This document shows positions 9,340 through 51,632 of a stretch of DNA of 64,000 bases, in pieces (the first letter of the stretch is position 1; each line of letters starts with the position of its first letter). The notes below the pieces were generated by a model, which ran no database searches, had not been told where the DNA came from, and worked only from the letters and a program-made list of their open reading frames with translations. Both the position numbers and the translations under genes were made by a program. This stretch comes from Escherichia coli. GTDB lineage: Bacteria > Pseudomonadota > Gammaproteobacteria > Enterobacterales > Enterobacteriaceae. The stretch lies in NCBI RefSeq assembly GCF_041886205.1, contig NZ_CP169029.1; one strand, 5' to 3'.

Positions 9340-9906
9340 TTACTTCACGCGAGAGACGTATTCACCAGAGCGGGTATCCACTTTGATGACTTCGCCGATT
9401 TGTACGAACAGCGGAACTTTAACCACTGCGCCAGTAGACAGGGTAGCCGGTTTGCCGCCAGTACCTGCGGTATCACCTTTCAGGCCCGGATCGGTATCAA
9501 CGATTTCCAGTTCAACGAAGTTCGGCGGAGTAACGGAGATCGGCTGACCATTCCACAGAGTTACGATACACTCTGCCTGATCCAGCAGCCATTTAGCGTT
9601 GTCGCCAATTGCTTTTGCGTCAGCAGACAGCTGCTCGAAAGTTTCGTTGTTCATGAAGTGCCAGAACTCACCGTCGTTGTACAGGTAAGTCAGGTTCATA
9701 TCGACAACATCAGCGCCTTCAGCGGAATCAGTAGATTTGAAGGTTTTTTCTACGCGAGTACCGGTCAGCAGACGACGCAGTTTAACGCGAGCAAATGCCT
9801 GGCCTTTACCCGGTTTTACGAATTCACTCGCTTCAACCGCGTAAGGTTCGCCGTCTAACATGATTTTAAGACCAGCACGAAAATCGTTGCTATAGTACGT
9901 TGCCAT
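9340..9906 (-). CDS. efp: translation elongation factor P
   Basis: 188-aa ORF; conserved KPGKGQA loop with the modified Lys34. Confidence 0.97.
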
Positions 9907-22968: not shown

Positions 22969-23044
22969 GCCCGGATAGCTCAGTCGGTAGAGCAGGGGAT
23001 TGAAAATCCCCGTGTCCTTGGTTCGATTCCGAGTCCGGGCACCA
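22969..23044 (+). tRNA. pheU: tRNA-Phe (GAA anticodon)
   Basis: GCCCGGATAGCTCAGTCGGTAGAGCAGGGGATTGAAAATCCCCGTGTCCTTGGTTCGATTCCGAGTCCGGGCACCA; called pheU rather than pheV from yjdC flank. Confidence 0.97.
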
Positions 23045-23056
23045 AATTCATATCAA

Positions 23057-23082
23057 CGGACCTCCACGGAGGTCCGTTTTTC
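23057..23082 (+). terminator. tRNA-Phe terminator hairpin
   Basis: CGGACCTCC-ac-GGAGGTCCG followed by TTTTTCG. Confidence 0.8.
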
Positions 23083-23241
23083 GTTTCAGAACGCCACAAT
23101 TTAAGCGTTCTACCTACAAATCAATTCTACCGAACTCAACCAGATTCCCCCCACATCAACCCCATTGTGTGGGTATAATTGCGGGCATACCCCAGTTCGA
23201 CAGAATTTGTACCCTCTTTAACGCATTCAGAAGGCTATACT

Positions 23242-24504
23242 ATGGCACTGACTGACGCAAAAATCCGGGCTGCAAAGCCCACTGACAAGGCTTATAAACT
23301 CACTGACGGGGCTGGCATGTTCCTACTGGTTCATCCTAATGGTTCCCGTTACTGGCGTCTCCGTTATCGTATTCTGGGTAAGGAGAAGACTCTGGCACTT
23401 GGTGTGTATCCAGAAGTTTCTCTCTCCGAAGCTCGTACAAAACGGGATGAGGCCCGAAAACTGATTTCGGAGGGGATTGACCCTTGCGAACTGAAAAGAG
23501 CTAAAAAAGTAGTCCCTGATTTACAACTCTCTTTTGAACATATTGCACGACGCTGGCATGCCAGTAATAAACAATGGGCACAATCACACAGCGATAAAGT
23601 ACTCAAAAGCCTCGAGACACACGTTTTCCCCTTTATCGGCAACCGGGATATCACAACACTCAGTACCCCGGACCTGCTTATCCCTGTTCGTGCTGCAGAA
23701 GCTAAACAAATTTATGAAATCGCCAGTCGTCTGCAGCAAAGAATATCTGCTGTAATGCGTTATGCCGTACAGTCTGGCATCATCAGATATAACCCGGCTC
23801 TGGATATGGCTGGTGCATTGACCACGGTAAAACGCCAGCATCGCCCTGCACTGGATCTTTCACGCCTGCCTGAACTTCTGTCGCGTATTGACGGTTATAA
23901 AGGCCAGCCTGTCACCCGACTGGCAGTTATGCTGAATTTACTGGTTTTTATTCGTTCCAGTGAACTCAGATACGCCCGCTGGTCTGAAATTGATATTGAC
24001 AATGCCATGTGGACTATTCCAGCCGAACGCGAACCTCTGCCTGGCGTAAAATTCTCACACCGGGGCTCCAAGATGCGAACACCACATCTTGTGCCACTCA
24101 GCAAACAGGCTGTAGCCATACTGGCAGAACTACAGACATGGGCTGGTGAAAATGGTCTGATCTTTACGGGAGCACATGACCCGCGTAAACCAATCAGTGA
24201 AAATACTGTAAATAAAGCCCTGAGGGTGATGGGGTATGACACAACCCAGGATGTCTGTGGCCATGGATTCCGGGCGATGGCGTGCAGTGCATTGATTGAA
24301 TCAGGTTTGTGGTCCCGCGATGCTGTGGAACGTCAGATGAGCCATCAGGAGCGTAATGGTGTACGTGCTGCGTATATCCATAAAGCAGAACATCTGGAAG
24401 AACGGCGACTGATGTTGCAATGGTGGGCCGATTTTCTGGATGCGAACCGGGAGAAGGGTATCAGTCCGTTTGAATATGCAAAAATTAACAATCCATTAAA
24501 ATAG
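23242..24504 (+). CDS. P4-family tyrosine integrase, tRNA-Phe associated
   Basis: 441-aa ORF, about 420-aa product from MALTDAKIRAAKPTDKAYKLTDGAG; C-terminal catalytic HGFR ... AAYIH (H-x-x-R / Tyr); immediately 3' of tRNA. Confidence 0.88.
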   Translation: MALTDAKIRAAKPTDKAYKLTDGAGMFLLVHPNGSRYWRLRYRILGKEKTLALGVYPEVSLSEARTKRDEARKLISEGIDPCELKRAKKVVPDLQLSFEHIARRWHASNKQWAQSHSDKVLKSLETHVFPFIGNRDITTLSTPDLLIPVRAAEAKQIYEIASRLQQRISAVMRYAVQSGIIRYNPALDMAGALTTVKRQHRPALDLSRLPELLSRIDGYKGQPVTRLAVMLNLLVFIRSSELRYARWSEIDIDNAMWTIPAEREPLPGVKFSHRGSKMRTPHLVPLSKQAVAILAELQTWAGENGLIFTGAHDPRKPISENTVNKALRVMGYDTTQDVCGHGFRAMACSALIESGLWSRDAVERQMSHQERNGVRAAYIHKAEHLEERRLMLQWWADFLDANREKGISPFEYAKINNPLK

Positions 24505-24590
24505 TAAGCAGTCCGGGCAATCAGCCCGGACTGCTGGTGATGCTGCCAACTTACTGATTTAGTGTATGATGGTGTTTTTGAGGTGCTCCA

Positions 24591-24866
24591 GTGGCTTCTG
24601 TTTCTATCAGCTGTCCCTCCTGTTCAGCTACTGACGGGGTGGTACGTAACGGCAAAAGCACCGCCGGACATCAGCGCTATCTCTGCTCTCACTGCCGTAA
24701 AACATGGCAACTGCAGTTCACTTACACCGCTTCTCAACCCGGTACGCACCAGAAAATCATTGATATGGCCATGAATGGCGTTGGATGCCGGGCAACTGCC
24801 CGCATTATGGGCGTTGGCCTCAACACGATTTTACGTCACTTAAAAAACTCAGGCCGCAGTCGGTAA
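24591..24866 (+). CDS. insA: IS1 InsA
   Basis: 91-aa [20 protein letters not shown]...; zinc-finger/HTH protein of IS1. Confidence 0.95.
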
Positions 24867-25288
24867 CCTCGCGCATACAGCCGGGCAGTGACGTCATCGT
24901 CTGCGCGGAAATGGACGAACAGTGGGGCTATGTCGGGGCTAAATCGCGCCAGCGCTGGCTGTTTTACGCGTATGACAGGCTCCGGAAGACGGTTGTTGCG
25001 CACGTATTCGGTGAACGCACTATGGCGACGCTGGAGCGTCTTCTGGGCCTGCTGTCGGCCTTTGAGGTCGTGGTATGGATGACGGATGGCTGGCCGCTTT
25101 ATGAATCACGCCTGAAGGGAGAACTGCACGTTATCAGCAAGCGATATACGCAGCGCATTGAGCGGCATAACCTGAATCTGAGGCAGCATCTGGCAAGGCT
25201 GGGCAGGAAGTCACTGTCGTTCTCAAAATCGGTGGAGCTGCATGACAAAGTTATCGGGCATTATCTGAACATAAAACACTATCAATAA
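24785..25288 (+). CDS. insB: IS1 InsB (expressed as InsAB' transposase by -1 frameshift)
   Basis: 167-aa ORF in -1 frame relative to insA; matches IS1 InsB. Confidence 0.9.
24840..24848 (+). promoter_or_regulatory. IS1 programmed -1 ribosomal frameshift site (TTAAAAAAC)
   Basis: A6C slippery run at the insA/insB overlap. Confidence 0.8.
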
Positions 25289-25354
25289 GTTGGAGTCATT
25301 ACCCGCTTTGCTTTAGCGAGAACTGGTCTTTTATTCGCACTCAGGAGTACATGT

Positions 25355-26116
25355 ATGAGGATTTGCAGCGACCAACCTTGTATTGTTTTATTGACTGAAA
25401 AAGATGTCTGGATAAGGGTGAATGGGAAAGAACCTATTAGCCTTAAAGCTAACCATATGGCGTTATTAAATTGTGAAAATAATATTATCGACGTCTCCTC
25501 TCTTAACAACACTTTGGTTGCTCATATTAGTCACGACATCATCAAAGATTACCTCCGGTTTCTGAATAAAGATCTCTCGCAAATACCAGTATGGCAACGT
25601 AGCGCTACGCCCATACTCACCCTGCCATGCCTGACGCCAGACGTCTTTCGCGTTGCCGCGCAACACAGCATGATGCCCGCAGAAACTGAGTCAGAAAAGG
25701 AACGAACACGCGCATTATTATTCACGGTGCTATCCCGTTTTCTCGACAGTAAAAAATTCGTTTCATTAATGATGTATATGTTACGTAATTGTGTAAGTGA
25801 CAGCGTTTATCAAATTATTGAAAGCGATATTCACAAAGACTGGAATCTTAGTATGGTAGCCAGTTGTTTATGTCTTAGCCCAAGTCTGTTAAAGAAAAAG
25901 TTGAAAAGCGAAAACACCAGTTATAGCCAAATAATCACCACCTGCCGCATGCGTTATGCCGTAAATGAATTAATGATGGACGGTAAAAATATCTCTCAGG
26001 TATCACAGTCCTGCGGCTACAACAGTACGTCGTACTTTATTTCTGTCTTTAAAGACTTCTACGGTATGACGCCGCTGCATTATGTTAGTCAGCACAGAGA
26101 ACGCACTGTCGCCTGA
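25355..26116 (+). CDS. adiY: AraC-family regulator AdiY
   Basis: 253-aa ORF; C-terminal AraC HTH; immediately upstream of adiC. Confidence 0.92.
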   Translation: MRICSDQPCIVLLTEKDVWIRVNGKEPISLKANHMALLNCENNIIDVSSLNNTLVAHISHDIIKDYLRFLNKDLSQIPVWQRSATPILTLPCLTPDVFRVAAQHSMMPAETESEKERTRALLFTVLSRFLDSKKFVSLMMYMLRNCVSDSVYQIIESDIHKDWNLSMVASCLCLSPSLLKKKLKSENTSYSQIITTCRMRYAVNELMMDGKNISQVSQSCGYNSTSYFISVFKDFYGMTPLHYVSQHRERTVA

Positions 26117-36885: not shown

Positions 36886-36899
36886 TTGTATTGTGATCG

Positions 36900-37082
<183 letters not shown>

Positions 37083-48540: not shown

Positions 48541-48660
48541 AATGTGCGCGCTGGCCCCCTCACCCTAACCCTCTCCCCAGAGGGGCGAGGGGACCGATTG
48601 TGCTCGATATTGAATATTGCGCTCGTTTTCTCCCTCTCCCCATTGGGGTGAGGGGCGATG
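48541..48660. repeat. paired G/C-rich palindromic intergenic repeats (BoxC-like)
   Basis: two copies of CCCTC(A/T)CCC...GGGG(C/T)GAGGGG-type imperfect palindromes; family name uncertain. Confidence 0.4.
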
Positions 48661-48678
48661 CCTGCTCCATACCCAACC

Positions 48679-49008
48679 TCATCGCCCATACTCATCTTCC
48701 ATTCTCCGCTCTTCATCCTCCAGTTGCCGACGCTCCTGATCAAGCTGGCGCTGGCGATCGTCCAGCTGCCTGCGGCGATCTTCAAACTGGCGGCGGCGGT
48801 CGTCATATTGTCTGCGCCGATCGTCGCTCACTTCACGCTGCCAGCCGTCGTCGCGCGAATCTTCATAGTCTCGCCCACGGTCAGGGTTATAAGCGTCATT
48901 AATCGCCTGCTGAATATTGCCAATGGTGTCGTCGATAATATCGGCCTGGGCCGGAACGGTGGACAGCGTGAGCAGGGTGAATAAAAGAAATAGCGGAAAG
49001 CGTTTCAT
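48679..49008 (-). CDS. yjdP: secreted low-complexity protein YjdP
   Basis: 109 aa; signal peptide MKRFPLFLLFTLLTLSTVPAQA followed by D/E/R/Q-rich repeats. Confidence 0.8.
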   Translation of the reverse strand: MKRFPLFLLFTLLTLSTVPAQADIIDDTIGNIQQAINDAYNPDRGRDYEDSRDDGWQREVSDDRRRQYDDRRRQFEDRRRQLDDRQRQLDQERRQLEDEERRMEDEYGR

Positions 49009-49076
49009 TAGCCAACCTCAAAAAGAAACTCTATCCACATTAATCATTACTCATCCATGCAAGTAGTGGATGAATC

Positions 49077-49394
49077 TCAATTTCTCCGCTGCTCTATTGC
49101 CGTAATCGCCTCCACGCGTTGTTGATGACGACCGCCTTCGTACTGTGCGCCCAGCCACGCATCCACAATCATTTTTGCCAGTTCGAGGCCAACCACTCGT
49201 GAACCAAAAGCCAGTGCAACTTCACTGGCGTAATGCGGATAATCAGTGCGCTCTGACGACCTGGTTTCTTTATCAATCCCCTCACTCATTGACCATGAAT
49301 AAAAGGCTGGCACAGCAACACAGAATCCTGCGGTGCCAGCGACATGACCGCCCATTGCTCCGGTACGTTTTTTAATAAAAAACACCGGTTGCAT
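49077..49394 (-). pseudogene. rpiB: rpiB-like remnant (ribose-5-phosphate isomerase B fragment)
   Basis: 105-aa ORF; C-terminal about 60 aa (SSERTDYPHYAS...FGSRVVGLELAKMIVDAWLGAQYEGGRHQQRVEAITAIEQRRN) match my recollection of RpiB; the catalytic-loop segment is missing and the N-terminal 40 aa are unrelated. Confidence 0.6.
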
Positions 49395-49646
49395 TGATTA
49401 ATTGTGCTCAGTATTTGCCGAAGTACAATATATATAATAAATATATAAAACACCTCATATTATTTACAGAGATAATAAATTCGCGTACTTTTCCCTCTTC
49501 AGCACAAATGCCTAATAAAATGGCGCGTTCAGCTCACACTTCCACTTATTAAAGTCGCAATTTCCCAATTATGATAACGCCAGCTTTAAATGACGTATTT
49601 TGCATGGATTACATATTTACGACATAAATGATAAATGGAGATTTAT

Positions 49647-51632
49647 ATGAATAACTCTCGGTTATTCCGTTTGAGCAGGATTGTTATTGCGTTAACTGCC
49701 GCCAGCGGCATGATGGTAAATACCGCTAACGCGAAAGAGGAAGCGAAAGCCGCCACTCAATATACCCAACAGGTTAATCAGAATTACGCCAAATCATTAC
49801 CGTTTAGCGATCGTCAGGATTTTGACGATGCCCAGCGTGGATTTATCGCCCCGCTGCTGGATGAAGGTATTCTGCGTGATGCGAACGGTAAAGTTTACTA
49901 CCGCGCGGACGATTACAAATTTGATATTAATGCCGCAGCGCCGGAAACCGTAAACCCCAGCCTGTGGCGTCAGTCGCAAATCAACGGTATTTCTGGCCTG
50001 TTCAAAGTCACCGATAAAATGTATCAGGTGCGCGGCCAGGATATCTCTAACATTACGTTCGTTGAGGGCGAGAAAGGCATTATTGTTATTGACCCACTGG
50101 TGACGCCACCTGCCGCAAAAGCCGCACTTGACCTTTACTTCCAGCATCGTCCGCATAAACCGATTGTTGCCGTTATCTACACTCACAGCCACACTGACCA
50201 CTATGGTGGCGTGAAAGGTATTATCTCTGAAGCCGATGTTAAATCCGGCAAAGTTCAGGTGATTGCCCCTGCAGGCTTTATGGACGAAGCCATCAGCGAA
50301 AACGTGCTGGCGGGTAACATCATGAGCCGCCGTGCGCTCTACTCTTACGGTCTGTTACTGCCGCACAACGCGCAAGGCAACGTGGGTAATGGCCTTGGCG
50401 TGACGCTGGCAACGGGCGACCCGAGCATTATTGCACCGACTAAAACTATCGTCAGAACTGGCGAGAAGATGATTATTGACGGCCTGGAGTTTGACTTCCT
50501 GATGACCCCAGGTAGCGAAGCGCCAGCCGAAATGCACTTCTATATTCCGGCCCTGAAAGCCCTGTGTACCGCCGAGAACGCCACGCATACCCTACACAAC
50601 TTCTACACTCTGCGCGGCGCGAAAACCCGCGATACCAGCAAGTGGACCGAGTACCTGAACGAAACGCTGGATATGTGGGGTAACGACGCGGAAGTCCTGT
50701 TTATGCCGCACACCTGGCCGGTCTGGGGCAATAAGCATATCAATGATTATATTGGTAAATATCGCGATACTATCAAGTACATTCACGACCAGACCCTGCA
50801 CCTGGCGAACCAGGGCTACACCATGAATGAAATCAGCGACATGATTAAGCTGCCGCCTGCACTTGCCAATAACTGGGCCAGCCGTGGCTATTACGGTTCT
50901 GTCAGCCACAACGCCCGCGCGGTGTATAACTTCTATCTTGGCTATTACGACGGTAACCCGGCTAACCTGCATCCGTATGGTCAGGTGGAGATGGGTAAAC
51001 GTTACGTGCAGGCGCTGGGCGGTTCTGCCCGTGTCATCAACCTAGCGCAAGAAGCGAACAAGCAAGGTGATTACCGCTGGTCGGCAGAACTGCTGAAACA
51101 GGTGATTGCCGCCAACCCGGGTGACCAGGTCGCGAAGAATCTGCAAGCGAATAACTTTGAACAGCTGGGCTATCAGGCCGAATCCGCCACCTGGCGCGGT
51201 TTCTACCTGACCGGCGCGAAAGAGCTGCGCGAAGGGGTGCATAAGTTCAGCCACGGCACCACCGGTTCCCCGGACACCATTCGCGGGATGTCGGTCGAAA
51301 TGCTGTTCGACTTTATGTCCGTTCGCCTCGATAGCGCGAAAGCCGCGGGTAAAAATATCAGCCTGAACTTCAATATGAGCAATGGCGATAACCTCAACCT
51401 GACGCTGAACGATAGCGTGCTTAACTACCGTAAAACACTGCAATCCCAAGCTGACGCCTCTTTCTACATCAGCCGTGAAGATCTGCACGCCGTGCTAACC
51501 GGGCAAGCCAAAATGGCGGATCTGGTAAAAGCGAAGAAAGCCAAAATTATTGGCAATGGCGCGAAACTGGAAGAAATTATCGCCTGTCTGGATAATTTCG
51601 ATTTGTGGGTGAATATCGTAACCCCAAATTAA
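49647..51632 (+). CDS. yjcS: putative alkyl/aryl sulfatase YjcS (metallo-beta-lactamase plus SCP2-like domains)
   Basis: 661 aa from [13 protein letters not shown]...; signal peptide; HSHTDH metal motif. Confidence 0.9.

Follow-up and report, generated by a model that had tools for sequence, protein, structure and literature searches.

The 638-bp interval between yjdP and yjcS (positions 49009-49646 of the window, the 64-kb stretch of Escherichia coli DNA analysed here) is, with high confidence, a deletion allele, old and non-functional, of the rpiB-alsR-alsBACEK island. The same anchors are separated in K-12 MG1655 by 7270 bp, which hold rpiB, alsR, alsB, alsA, alsC, alsE and alsK in that order. 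The gene order in the window is phnN-phnO-phnP (plus strand), yjdP (minus), one 105-aa open reading frame (ORF; minus, 49077-49394) and yjcS (plus). An earlier note on this DNA had described an interval of about 640 bp with a single 105-aa ORF and without the rpiB, alsR and alsBACEK genes that K-12 carries there, and these points held when measured. Both anchors are intact. The left one, yjdP (48679-49008, minus strand), is a 109-aa ORF that is 100% identical to K-12 and is annotated as yjdP in an identical RefSeq locus; the right one, yjcS (49647-51632, plus strand), encodes an alkyl sulfatase and was recognized from the ORF list, the RefSeq annotation and blastn. The region 48900-49800 is 100% identical in a complete RefSeq genome, that of strain 504239. 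Using tblastn we detected no als gene in the 64-kb window, the only matches being generic ABC-ATPase matches in the phn operon, and the transporter, kinase and epimerase genes of a D-allose regulon were absent from it.

Alignment to K-12 rpiB and its flanks, proposed in the earlier note as the way to set the breakpoints, revealed two separate deletions and not one. On the left, positions 48600-49214 (yjdP, the spacer and rpiB nt 313-450) matched K-12 at 100% over 615 bp in blastn. The rpiB part of this match (49077-49214, minus strand) corresponds to residues 107-149 and the stop codon. It ends at the first junction (49209-49214), where a single CTGGCT copy is left and the adjoining blastn pieces overlap by 10 bp. 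Beyond it lies a trapped, divergent middle piece of rpiB (49215-49284, minus strand; about nt 84-153, residues 29-53); the alignment, of 49205-49284 with K-12 rpiB nt 84-163, has 88.75% identity, or 9 differences in 80 nt. The second junction (49285-49292) is a gap between blastn pieces, about 8 bp without assignable origin. It is followed by the last 6 nt of alsK (CCATGA) and a terminator-type hairpin (49293-49344, plus strand), which are highly divergent, with 76.9% identity over 52 bp (E = 9e-6). This als hairpin is GC-rich, and its stem is kept with changes on both arms, from GTTGGCAC/GTGCCAAC to GCTGGCAC/GTGCCAGC. The next 78 bp (49345-49422) are private to the remnant allele and contain the start codon of the ORF (49392-49394) and, by fold prediction, a second hairpin (CCGGTAC-GTTTTTT-AAT-AAAAAAC-ACCGG). 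Last comes the conserved yjcS upstream region (49423-49646, plus strand), homologous to K-12 and other Escherichia, 97% identical to K-12 from 49423 onwards, and with a right border common to all alleles.

The first deletion removed 159 bp (53 codons) in frame and with them RpiB residues 54-106. In K-12 this segment is flanked at both ends by the 6-bp direct repeat CTGGCT, of which one copy survives. The earlier note had placed an in-frame gap with loss of the catalytic Cys loop between VALA and FGSRVV, exactly where this deletion lies; it takes the ILICGTGVG loop with Cys66 and also His99. The second deletion, of about 6.56 kb, spans from codon 28 of rpiB to the final two codons of alsK and covers rpiB nt 1-83 (codons 1-28), the rpiB-alsR intergenic and control region, alsR and alsBACEK. 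As a result of the two, ORF residues 38-62 correspond to RpiB 29-53 and residues 63-105 to RpiB 107-149, as shown by both the DNA alignment and the alignments to the E. coli RpiB structures 1nn4 and 2vvr, which match the ORF in two pieces. Codons 63-105 are nucleotide-identical to K-12 rpiB codons 107-149, and codons 1-37 consist of the antisense strand of the alsK terminator hairpin and private DNA, with no RpiB origin. The RpiB-like C-terminal part anticipated in the earlier note was thus recovered, although it amounts to 68 residues in two pieces and not to about 60, and the unrelated start of the ORF is indeed unrelated to RpiB but counts 37 residues in place of about 40.

The same picture was obtained at the protein level. 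Instead of a complete domain of about 140 residues, the Pfam model LacAB_rpiB (PF02502) matched at only positions 27-49 (weakly, E = 1.7) and 102-138 (E = 6e-9) of its 138. Asp9 and His10 are known from RpiB structures to have a role in the enzyme. The N-terminal region that contains them went with residues 1-28 in the second deletion, and Cys66 with its Gly-Thr-Gly-x-Gly loop (E. coli numbering) and His99 went in the first. Previous work has shown that Cys66 is the catalytic base and that the H99N substitution lowers kcat 26-fold (PMC4783025). Since residues 1-28, the Cys66 loop and His99 are missing, together with the AlsR-controlled promoter region, the 105-aa product is predicted to have neither ribose-5-phosphate nor allose-6-phosphate isomerase activity.

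Collinear nucleotide homology, the orthologous position, the same neighbours yjdP and yjcS and the loss of essential parts together identify the stub, on its sequence, as a derivative of rpiB at the orthologous site. Because it still carries the final 6 nt of alsK with the terminator hairpin, the stub comes from an als-bearing ancestor. This ancestor underwent the two deletions, and the loss of 159 bp between CTGGCT repeats is typical of slipped-strand or illegitimate recombination. The leftover is an accidental 105-codon ORF, made of 37 antisense or private codons and 68 codons from two RpiB fragments. A separate 90-aa protein (P0029; NCBI, from an 18.6-kb contig) is a K-12-like RpiB with a different internal deletion (TDYPH joined to LAFGSRVV) whose right border is almost the same as that of the 159-bp deletion; it could reflect a recurrent deletion hotspot or an assembly error.

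Another ORF, of 158 aa, keeps the internal 53 residues and was found in at least eight metagenome assemblies (protein cluster P0002; loci L011 and L074-L080). We considered it as an intermediate with only the 6.56-kb deletion and rejected it as most likely a chimeric assembly. None of 5426 complete E. coli genomes contained it, nor did any isolate protein at NCBI. Its 3' parts are identical to als+ alleles that co-occur with it and that differ between contigs, being of the B2/SE15 type in L078 and of the K-12/H131 type in L074, and its switch point varies within a 24-38-nt stretch common to the remnant and als+ alleles. There remains a small chance that it is a rare real recombinant. Treated as a chimera, it gives no order for the two deletions. 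The case is a caution for protein catalogues built on metagenome assemblies.

We then found the remnant to be frequent. Its whole 901-bp structure was present in one piece in 1567 of the 5426 complete E. coli genomes, and its 208-bp trapped region in 1569 (about 29%). The alsR-alsK genes were present in 3404 of the 5426, with no overlap with the remnant carriers, and the als genes that the earlier note had suggested searching for elsewhere in the genome were thus not found in carriers. As a probe, the 208-bp region also matches intact rpiB, and it hit 4982 places in 4979 genomes, which means that practically no genome carries both the remnant and als. No complete E. coli genome among the 5426 had only one of the two deletions. 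The carriers come from many hosts and serotypes, and there are at least two remnant haplotypes, which differ at 7 of 208 private positions (about 3.4%). These results indicate that the remnant is a common, ordinary polymorphism of the E. coli pan-genome, real and well explained.

The divergence from K-12 is distributed as a mosaic. Left of the internal junction the window and K-12 differ at 3 positions in 7.2 kb. Just past the right border, 15 differences fall within 77 bp, and further on the level is about 1.5-2%. Every remnant copy that we read combined a near-K-12 3' piece of rpiB with the divergent trapped piece, and the latter was 88.6-92% identical to every intact E. coli rpiB; whole als clusters differ by at most 2.6% within the species. 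The substitutions relative to K-12 that the earlier note had seen in the retained part of rpiB are therefore confined to the 5' piece, with its 9 differences in 80 nt, the 3' piece being identical to K-12. This identity is most likely due to recombination with als+ strains. Such recombination would repeatedly replace the flanks up to the structural breakpoints, and only the approximately 210 bp trapped between the junctions would keep the old, decaying sequence of the allele itself. The view of the earlier note that this is a long-standing, decaying remnant is supported as to age by the wide distribution and the two haplotypes, but decay was seen only in the DNA trapped between the junctions.

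To judge its age, we set the remnant beside the intact alleles that E. whittamii, E. marmotae and two other Escherichia lineages carry. Its rpiB piece had 6-9 differences in 74 nt from the intact alleles of five Escherichia lineages, compared with 1-7 among the others. Its hairpin piece had 13-17 differences in 54 nt from every intact Escherichia allele, compared with 7-11 among the others. The remnant pieces are thus as far from the E. coli alleles as those of other Escherichia species, or farther. We found no parental als+ allele with the divergent edges of the remnant, either in the 3404 als+ E. coli (the best reaching 92% over 64-70 nt) or among the five other Escherichia alleles. Some of its states (GCGC, CCGC and GAA) also occur in the alleles of other species, and the trapped rpiB piece has private radical changes (Gly33Glu and Trp35Arg). 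Because shared states and private radical replacements occur together, the divergence appears to be part old polymorphism and part decay. On an estimate from about 130 bp, the allele would be at least comparable in age to the deepest E. coli splits and possibly older. On this view the locus shows how recombination erases divergence up to a breakpoint and leaves the age of an allele in the trapped DNA.

The site also accepts other cargo. A third allele, a 9.5-kb cluster, fills the space between yjdP and yjcS in Escherichia sp. E1V33 and in 411 of the complete E. coli genomes, and it accounts for most genomes without als or remnant. Its genes encode a hybrid sensor kinase, a sugar ABC transporter, a D-lyxose/D-mannose isomerase, a ketose-bisphosphate aldolase, a kinase and a response regulator. 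The interval is therefore a three-allele cargo site (als island, remnant and D-lyxose-type cluster) and not just a case of als being present or absent. The right border lies at 49423-49429 in K-12, E. whittamii, E. marmotae and two further Escherichia lineages, in every configuration. The private 78 bp are absent from K-12 and all als+ E. coli, and no E. coli genome has a second copy of them. Their last 32 bp (49391-49422), which no als+ allele contains, are collinear with the DNA upstream of the response-regulator gene of the third cluster; a match of this quality was reached by 26 of 300 shuffles and is not significant alone, so that the sharing of these 32 bp with the third allele is suggestive. 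Smith-Waterman comparisons against shuffles gave no significant match for the 78 bp in K-12, E. whittamii, E. marmotae, the loci L013 and L089, the Pluralibacter loci or the rest of the window, and word-7 blastn found no source in the als loci of other species. The first 46 bp (49345-49390), which include the second hairpin, had no partner in those comparisons.

A broader account would make this a sugar-cassette locus with three alleles older than E. coli, maintained through balancing or niche-dependent selection, or exchanged among Escherichia lineages by recombination in the flanks; the remnant would then be a trans-species or introgressed haplotype and not simply a loss that happened inside E. 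coli. We regard this account as unlikely. Several further configurations were observed around the site. On one metagenome contig (L084) alsE-alsK abuts the third cluster, a sign that the two may stand in tandem in some lineage. Two more genomes have independent deletions of their own at this site. In E. coli 300490 (L091, 7113-8260) an IS5 stands in place of the cargo, yjcS and part of ytcA. Escherichia sp. MOD1-EC7003 (L012, about 9700-9800) has a truncated phnO joined, at a CGAAGTG microhomology, to the DNA upstream of yjcS, and phnP, yjdP and any cargo are gone. In E. marmotae (L087) and in a locus labelled E. coli (L089), yjdP adjoins yjdN, the whole phn operon is absent and rpiB-als-yjcS is intact.

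We next considered whether the chimeric ORF is alive. RefSeq lists it as WP_001183282.1, an 'RpiB/LacA/LacB family sugar-phosphate isomerase', annotated by PGAP as a CDS with no pseudogene flag. This name overstates the ORF, and together with that of WP_001183287.1 it invites metabolic models to credit carriers with an isomerase that they do not have. A crude consensus scan of 48600-49900, which weak transcription or read-through could escape, found no sigma-70-like promoter, and there was no Shine-Dalgarno sequence upstream of the ORF's ATG. The 105-codon frame was open in 7 of 7 complete-genome copies that we read. Their polymorphisms are few, 6 synonymous and 6 non-synonymous, with 7 of the 12 at third codon positions. 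Among public protein data there are many versions of the ORF with frameshifts, truncations or additional deletions, several of them from isolate genomes. This variation fits neutral decay, and 12 polymorphisms would also be compatible with weak constraint.

One might suppose that the ORF has been co-opted as a small protein, for example a partner-binding protein or regulator with a de novo N-terminus and the C-terminal helices of RpiB, as its frame is open in all complete-genome copies read, third positions hold 7 of 12 polymorphisms and the allele persists at 29% frequency. We consider co-option very unlikely: no promoter-like or ribosome-binding site was found, non-synonymous changes, radical ones included, are as frequent as synonymous ones, truncated or frameshifted variants are many in isolate genomes, and an open 318-nt frame is expected by chance at so little divergence.

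The history of the site was examined in other genera. In Kluyvera phnP, yjdP and yjcS are adjacent, with no rpiB or als, and in Salmonella arizonae the order is phnP-yjcS. Because of these arrangements, the als island was probably inserted in the Escherichia line. They would also agree with a short allele that is the ancestral empty site, from which K-12-type strains gained the island, as would the ability of the site to take alternative cargo. However, the window has two pieces of rpiB, correctly ordered and oriented, and the end of alsK with its hairpin. Such fragments are impossible in an empty site, and therefore the allele of the window is a secondary loss; that it is the ancestral state is highly improbable.

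The last two readings can be set aside almost entirely. The PGAP name RpiB/LacA/LacB without a pseudogene flag and a frame open in every copy read might suggest that the ORF is a complete though shorter protein from another RpiB/LacAB subfamily with working sugar-phosphate isomerase activity, and the earlier note had named a full-length protein of a different subfamily with intact catalytic residues as the finding that would overturn its view; this is not the case, as Cys66, His99 and the entire N-terminal strand-loop are absent, Pfam model positions 1-26 and 50-101 are missing, the DNA is collinear with K-12 rpiB except for a 159-bp hole and the missing first 83 nt, and the N-terminal 37 residues are antisense terminator DNA. 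Equally little can be said for a recent strain-specific deletion or an assembly artefact, for, despite 100% identity to K-12 in the left flank and the 3' rpiB piece, which by itself might point to a fresh event in a K-12-like background, the identical structure recurs in 1567-1569 complete genomes, the private haplotypes differ by about 3.4%, the trapped pieces diverge from K-12 by 11-23%, and the allele is present in E. coli W, which was isolated decades ago.

Two other parts of the window also differ from K-12. The region 22969-26116 begins with tRNA-Phe (pheU, 22969-23044); a P4-type integrase (23179-24504) and an IS1 (24591-25288) come next, and adiY stands directly after them. At pheU-adiY 24.5 kb of K-12 (4337981-4362436) are absent, comprising yjdQ, cadCBA, dtpC, lysU, ghoST, yjdIJ, dcuSR, dcuB, fumB, yjdF, melBA, melR and adiA, and the integrase-IS1-adiY junction occurred in none of the 5426 complete E. 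coli genomes. In its lack of cadA the region may resemble the 'black hole' of Shigella and enteroinvasive E. coli, and the DNA of the window may stem from a Shigella-like strain. Between yjdN and yjdM there is a tandem repeat of about 100 bp (36896-37079), at which the window, judged by the offset of overlapping blastn alignments, is apparently about 400 bp (four units) shorter than K-12.

The same 318-nt ORF, in its second haplotype (WP_001183287.1), lies between yjcS and yjdP in E. coli W. A previous report stated that E. coli W (ATCC 9637, phylogroup B1) cannot catabolize allose and is without alsBACEK, and attributed the phenotype to this absence (Archer et al. 2011, PMC3032704). In its passages on allose, rpiB and als, the W paper makes no mention of the stub or of rpiB. 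The absence of als in strain W and its phenotype are thus already in the literature. The publications retrieved by our literature search contain the absence of alsBACEK in W and no description of the stub itself.

From what is missing, carriers are expected to have no D-allose transport or catabolism and no RpiB as a backup for RpiA. In K-12, derepression of rpiB is a route to suppression of rpiA mutations. This route would be closed to carriers, because they have no RpiB. The inability to use D-allose would thus extend to the industrial strain W and, in all, to about 29% of the complete E. coli genomes. Nothing here alters what is known of the allose pathway.

Compared with known systems, the allele of the window and that of E. 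coli W are two haplotypes of one stub, WP_001183282.1 and WP_001183287.1, which differ by 4 amino acids. With K-12 rpiB (alsI, b4090; allose-6-phosphate/ribose-5-phosphate isomerase B) it shares the yjdP-yjcS site, the alsK stop codon and the terminator hairpin. In contrast to the K-12 als regulon, it is without rpiB codons 1-28 and 54-106, the rpiB promoter and AlsR operator region, alsR and alsBACEK. The third cargo allele shares the yjdP-yjcS interval and the right border with the remnant, but it has no rpiB or als sequence and is a functional-looking 9.5-kb gene cluster.
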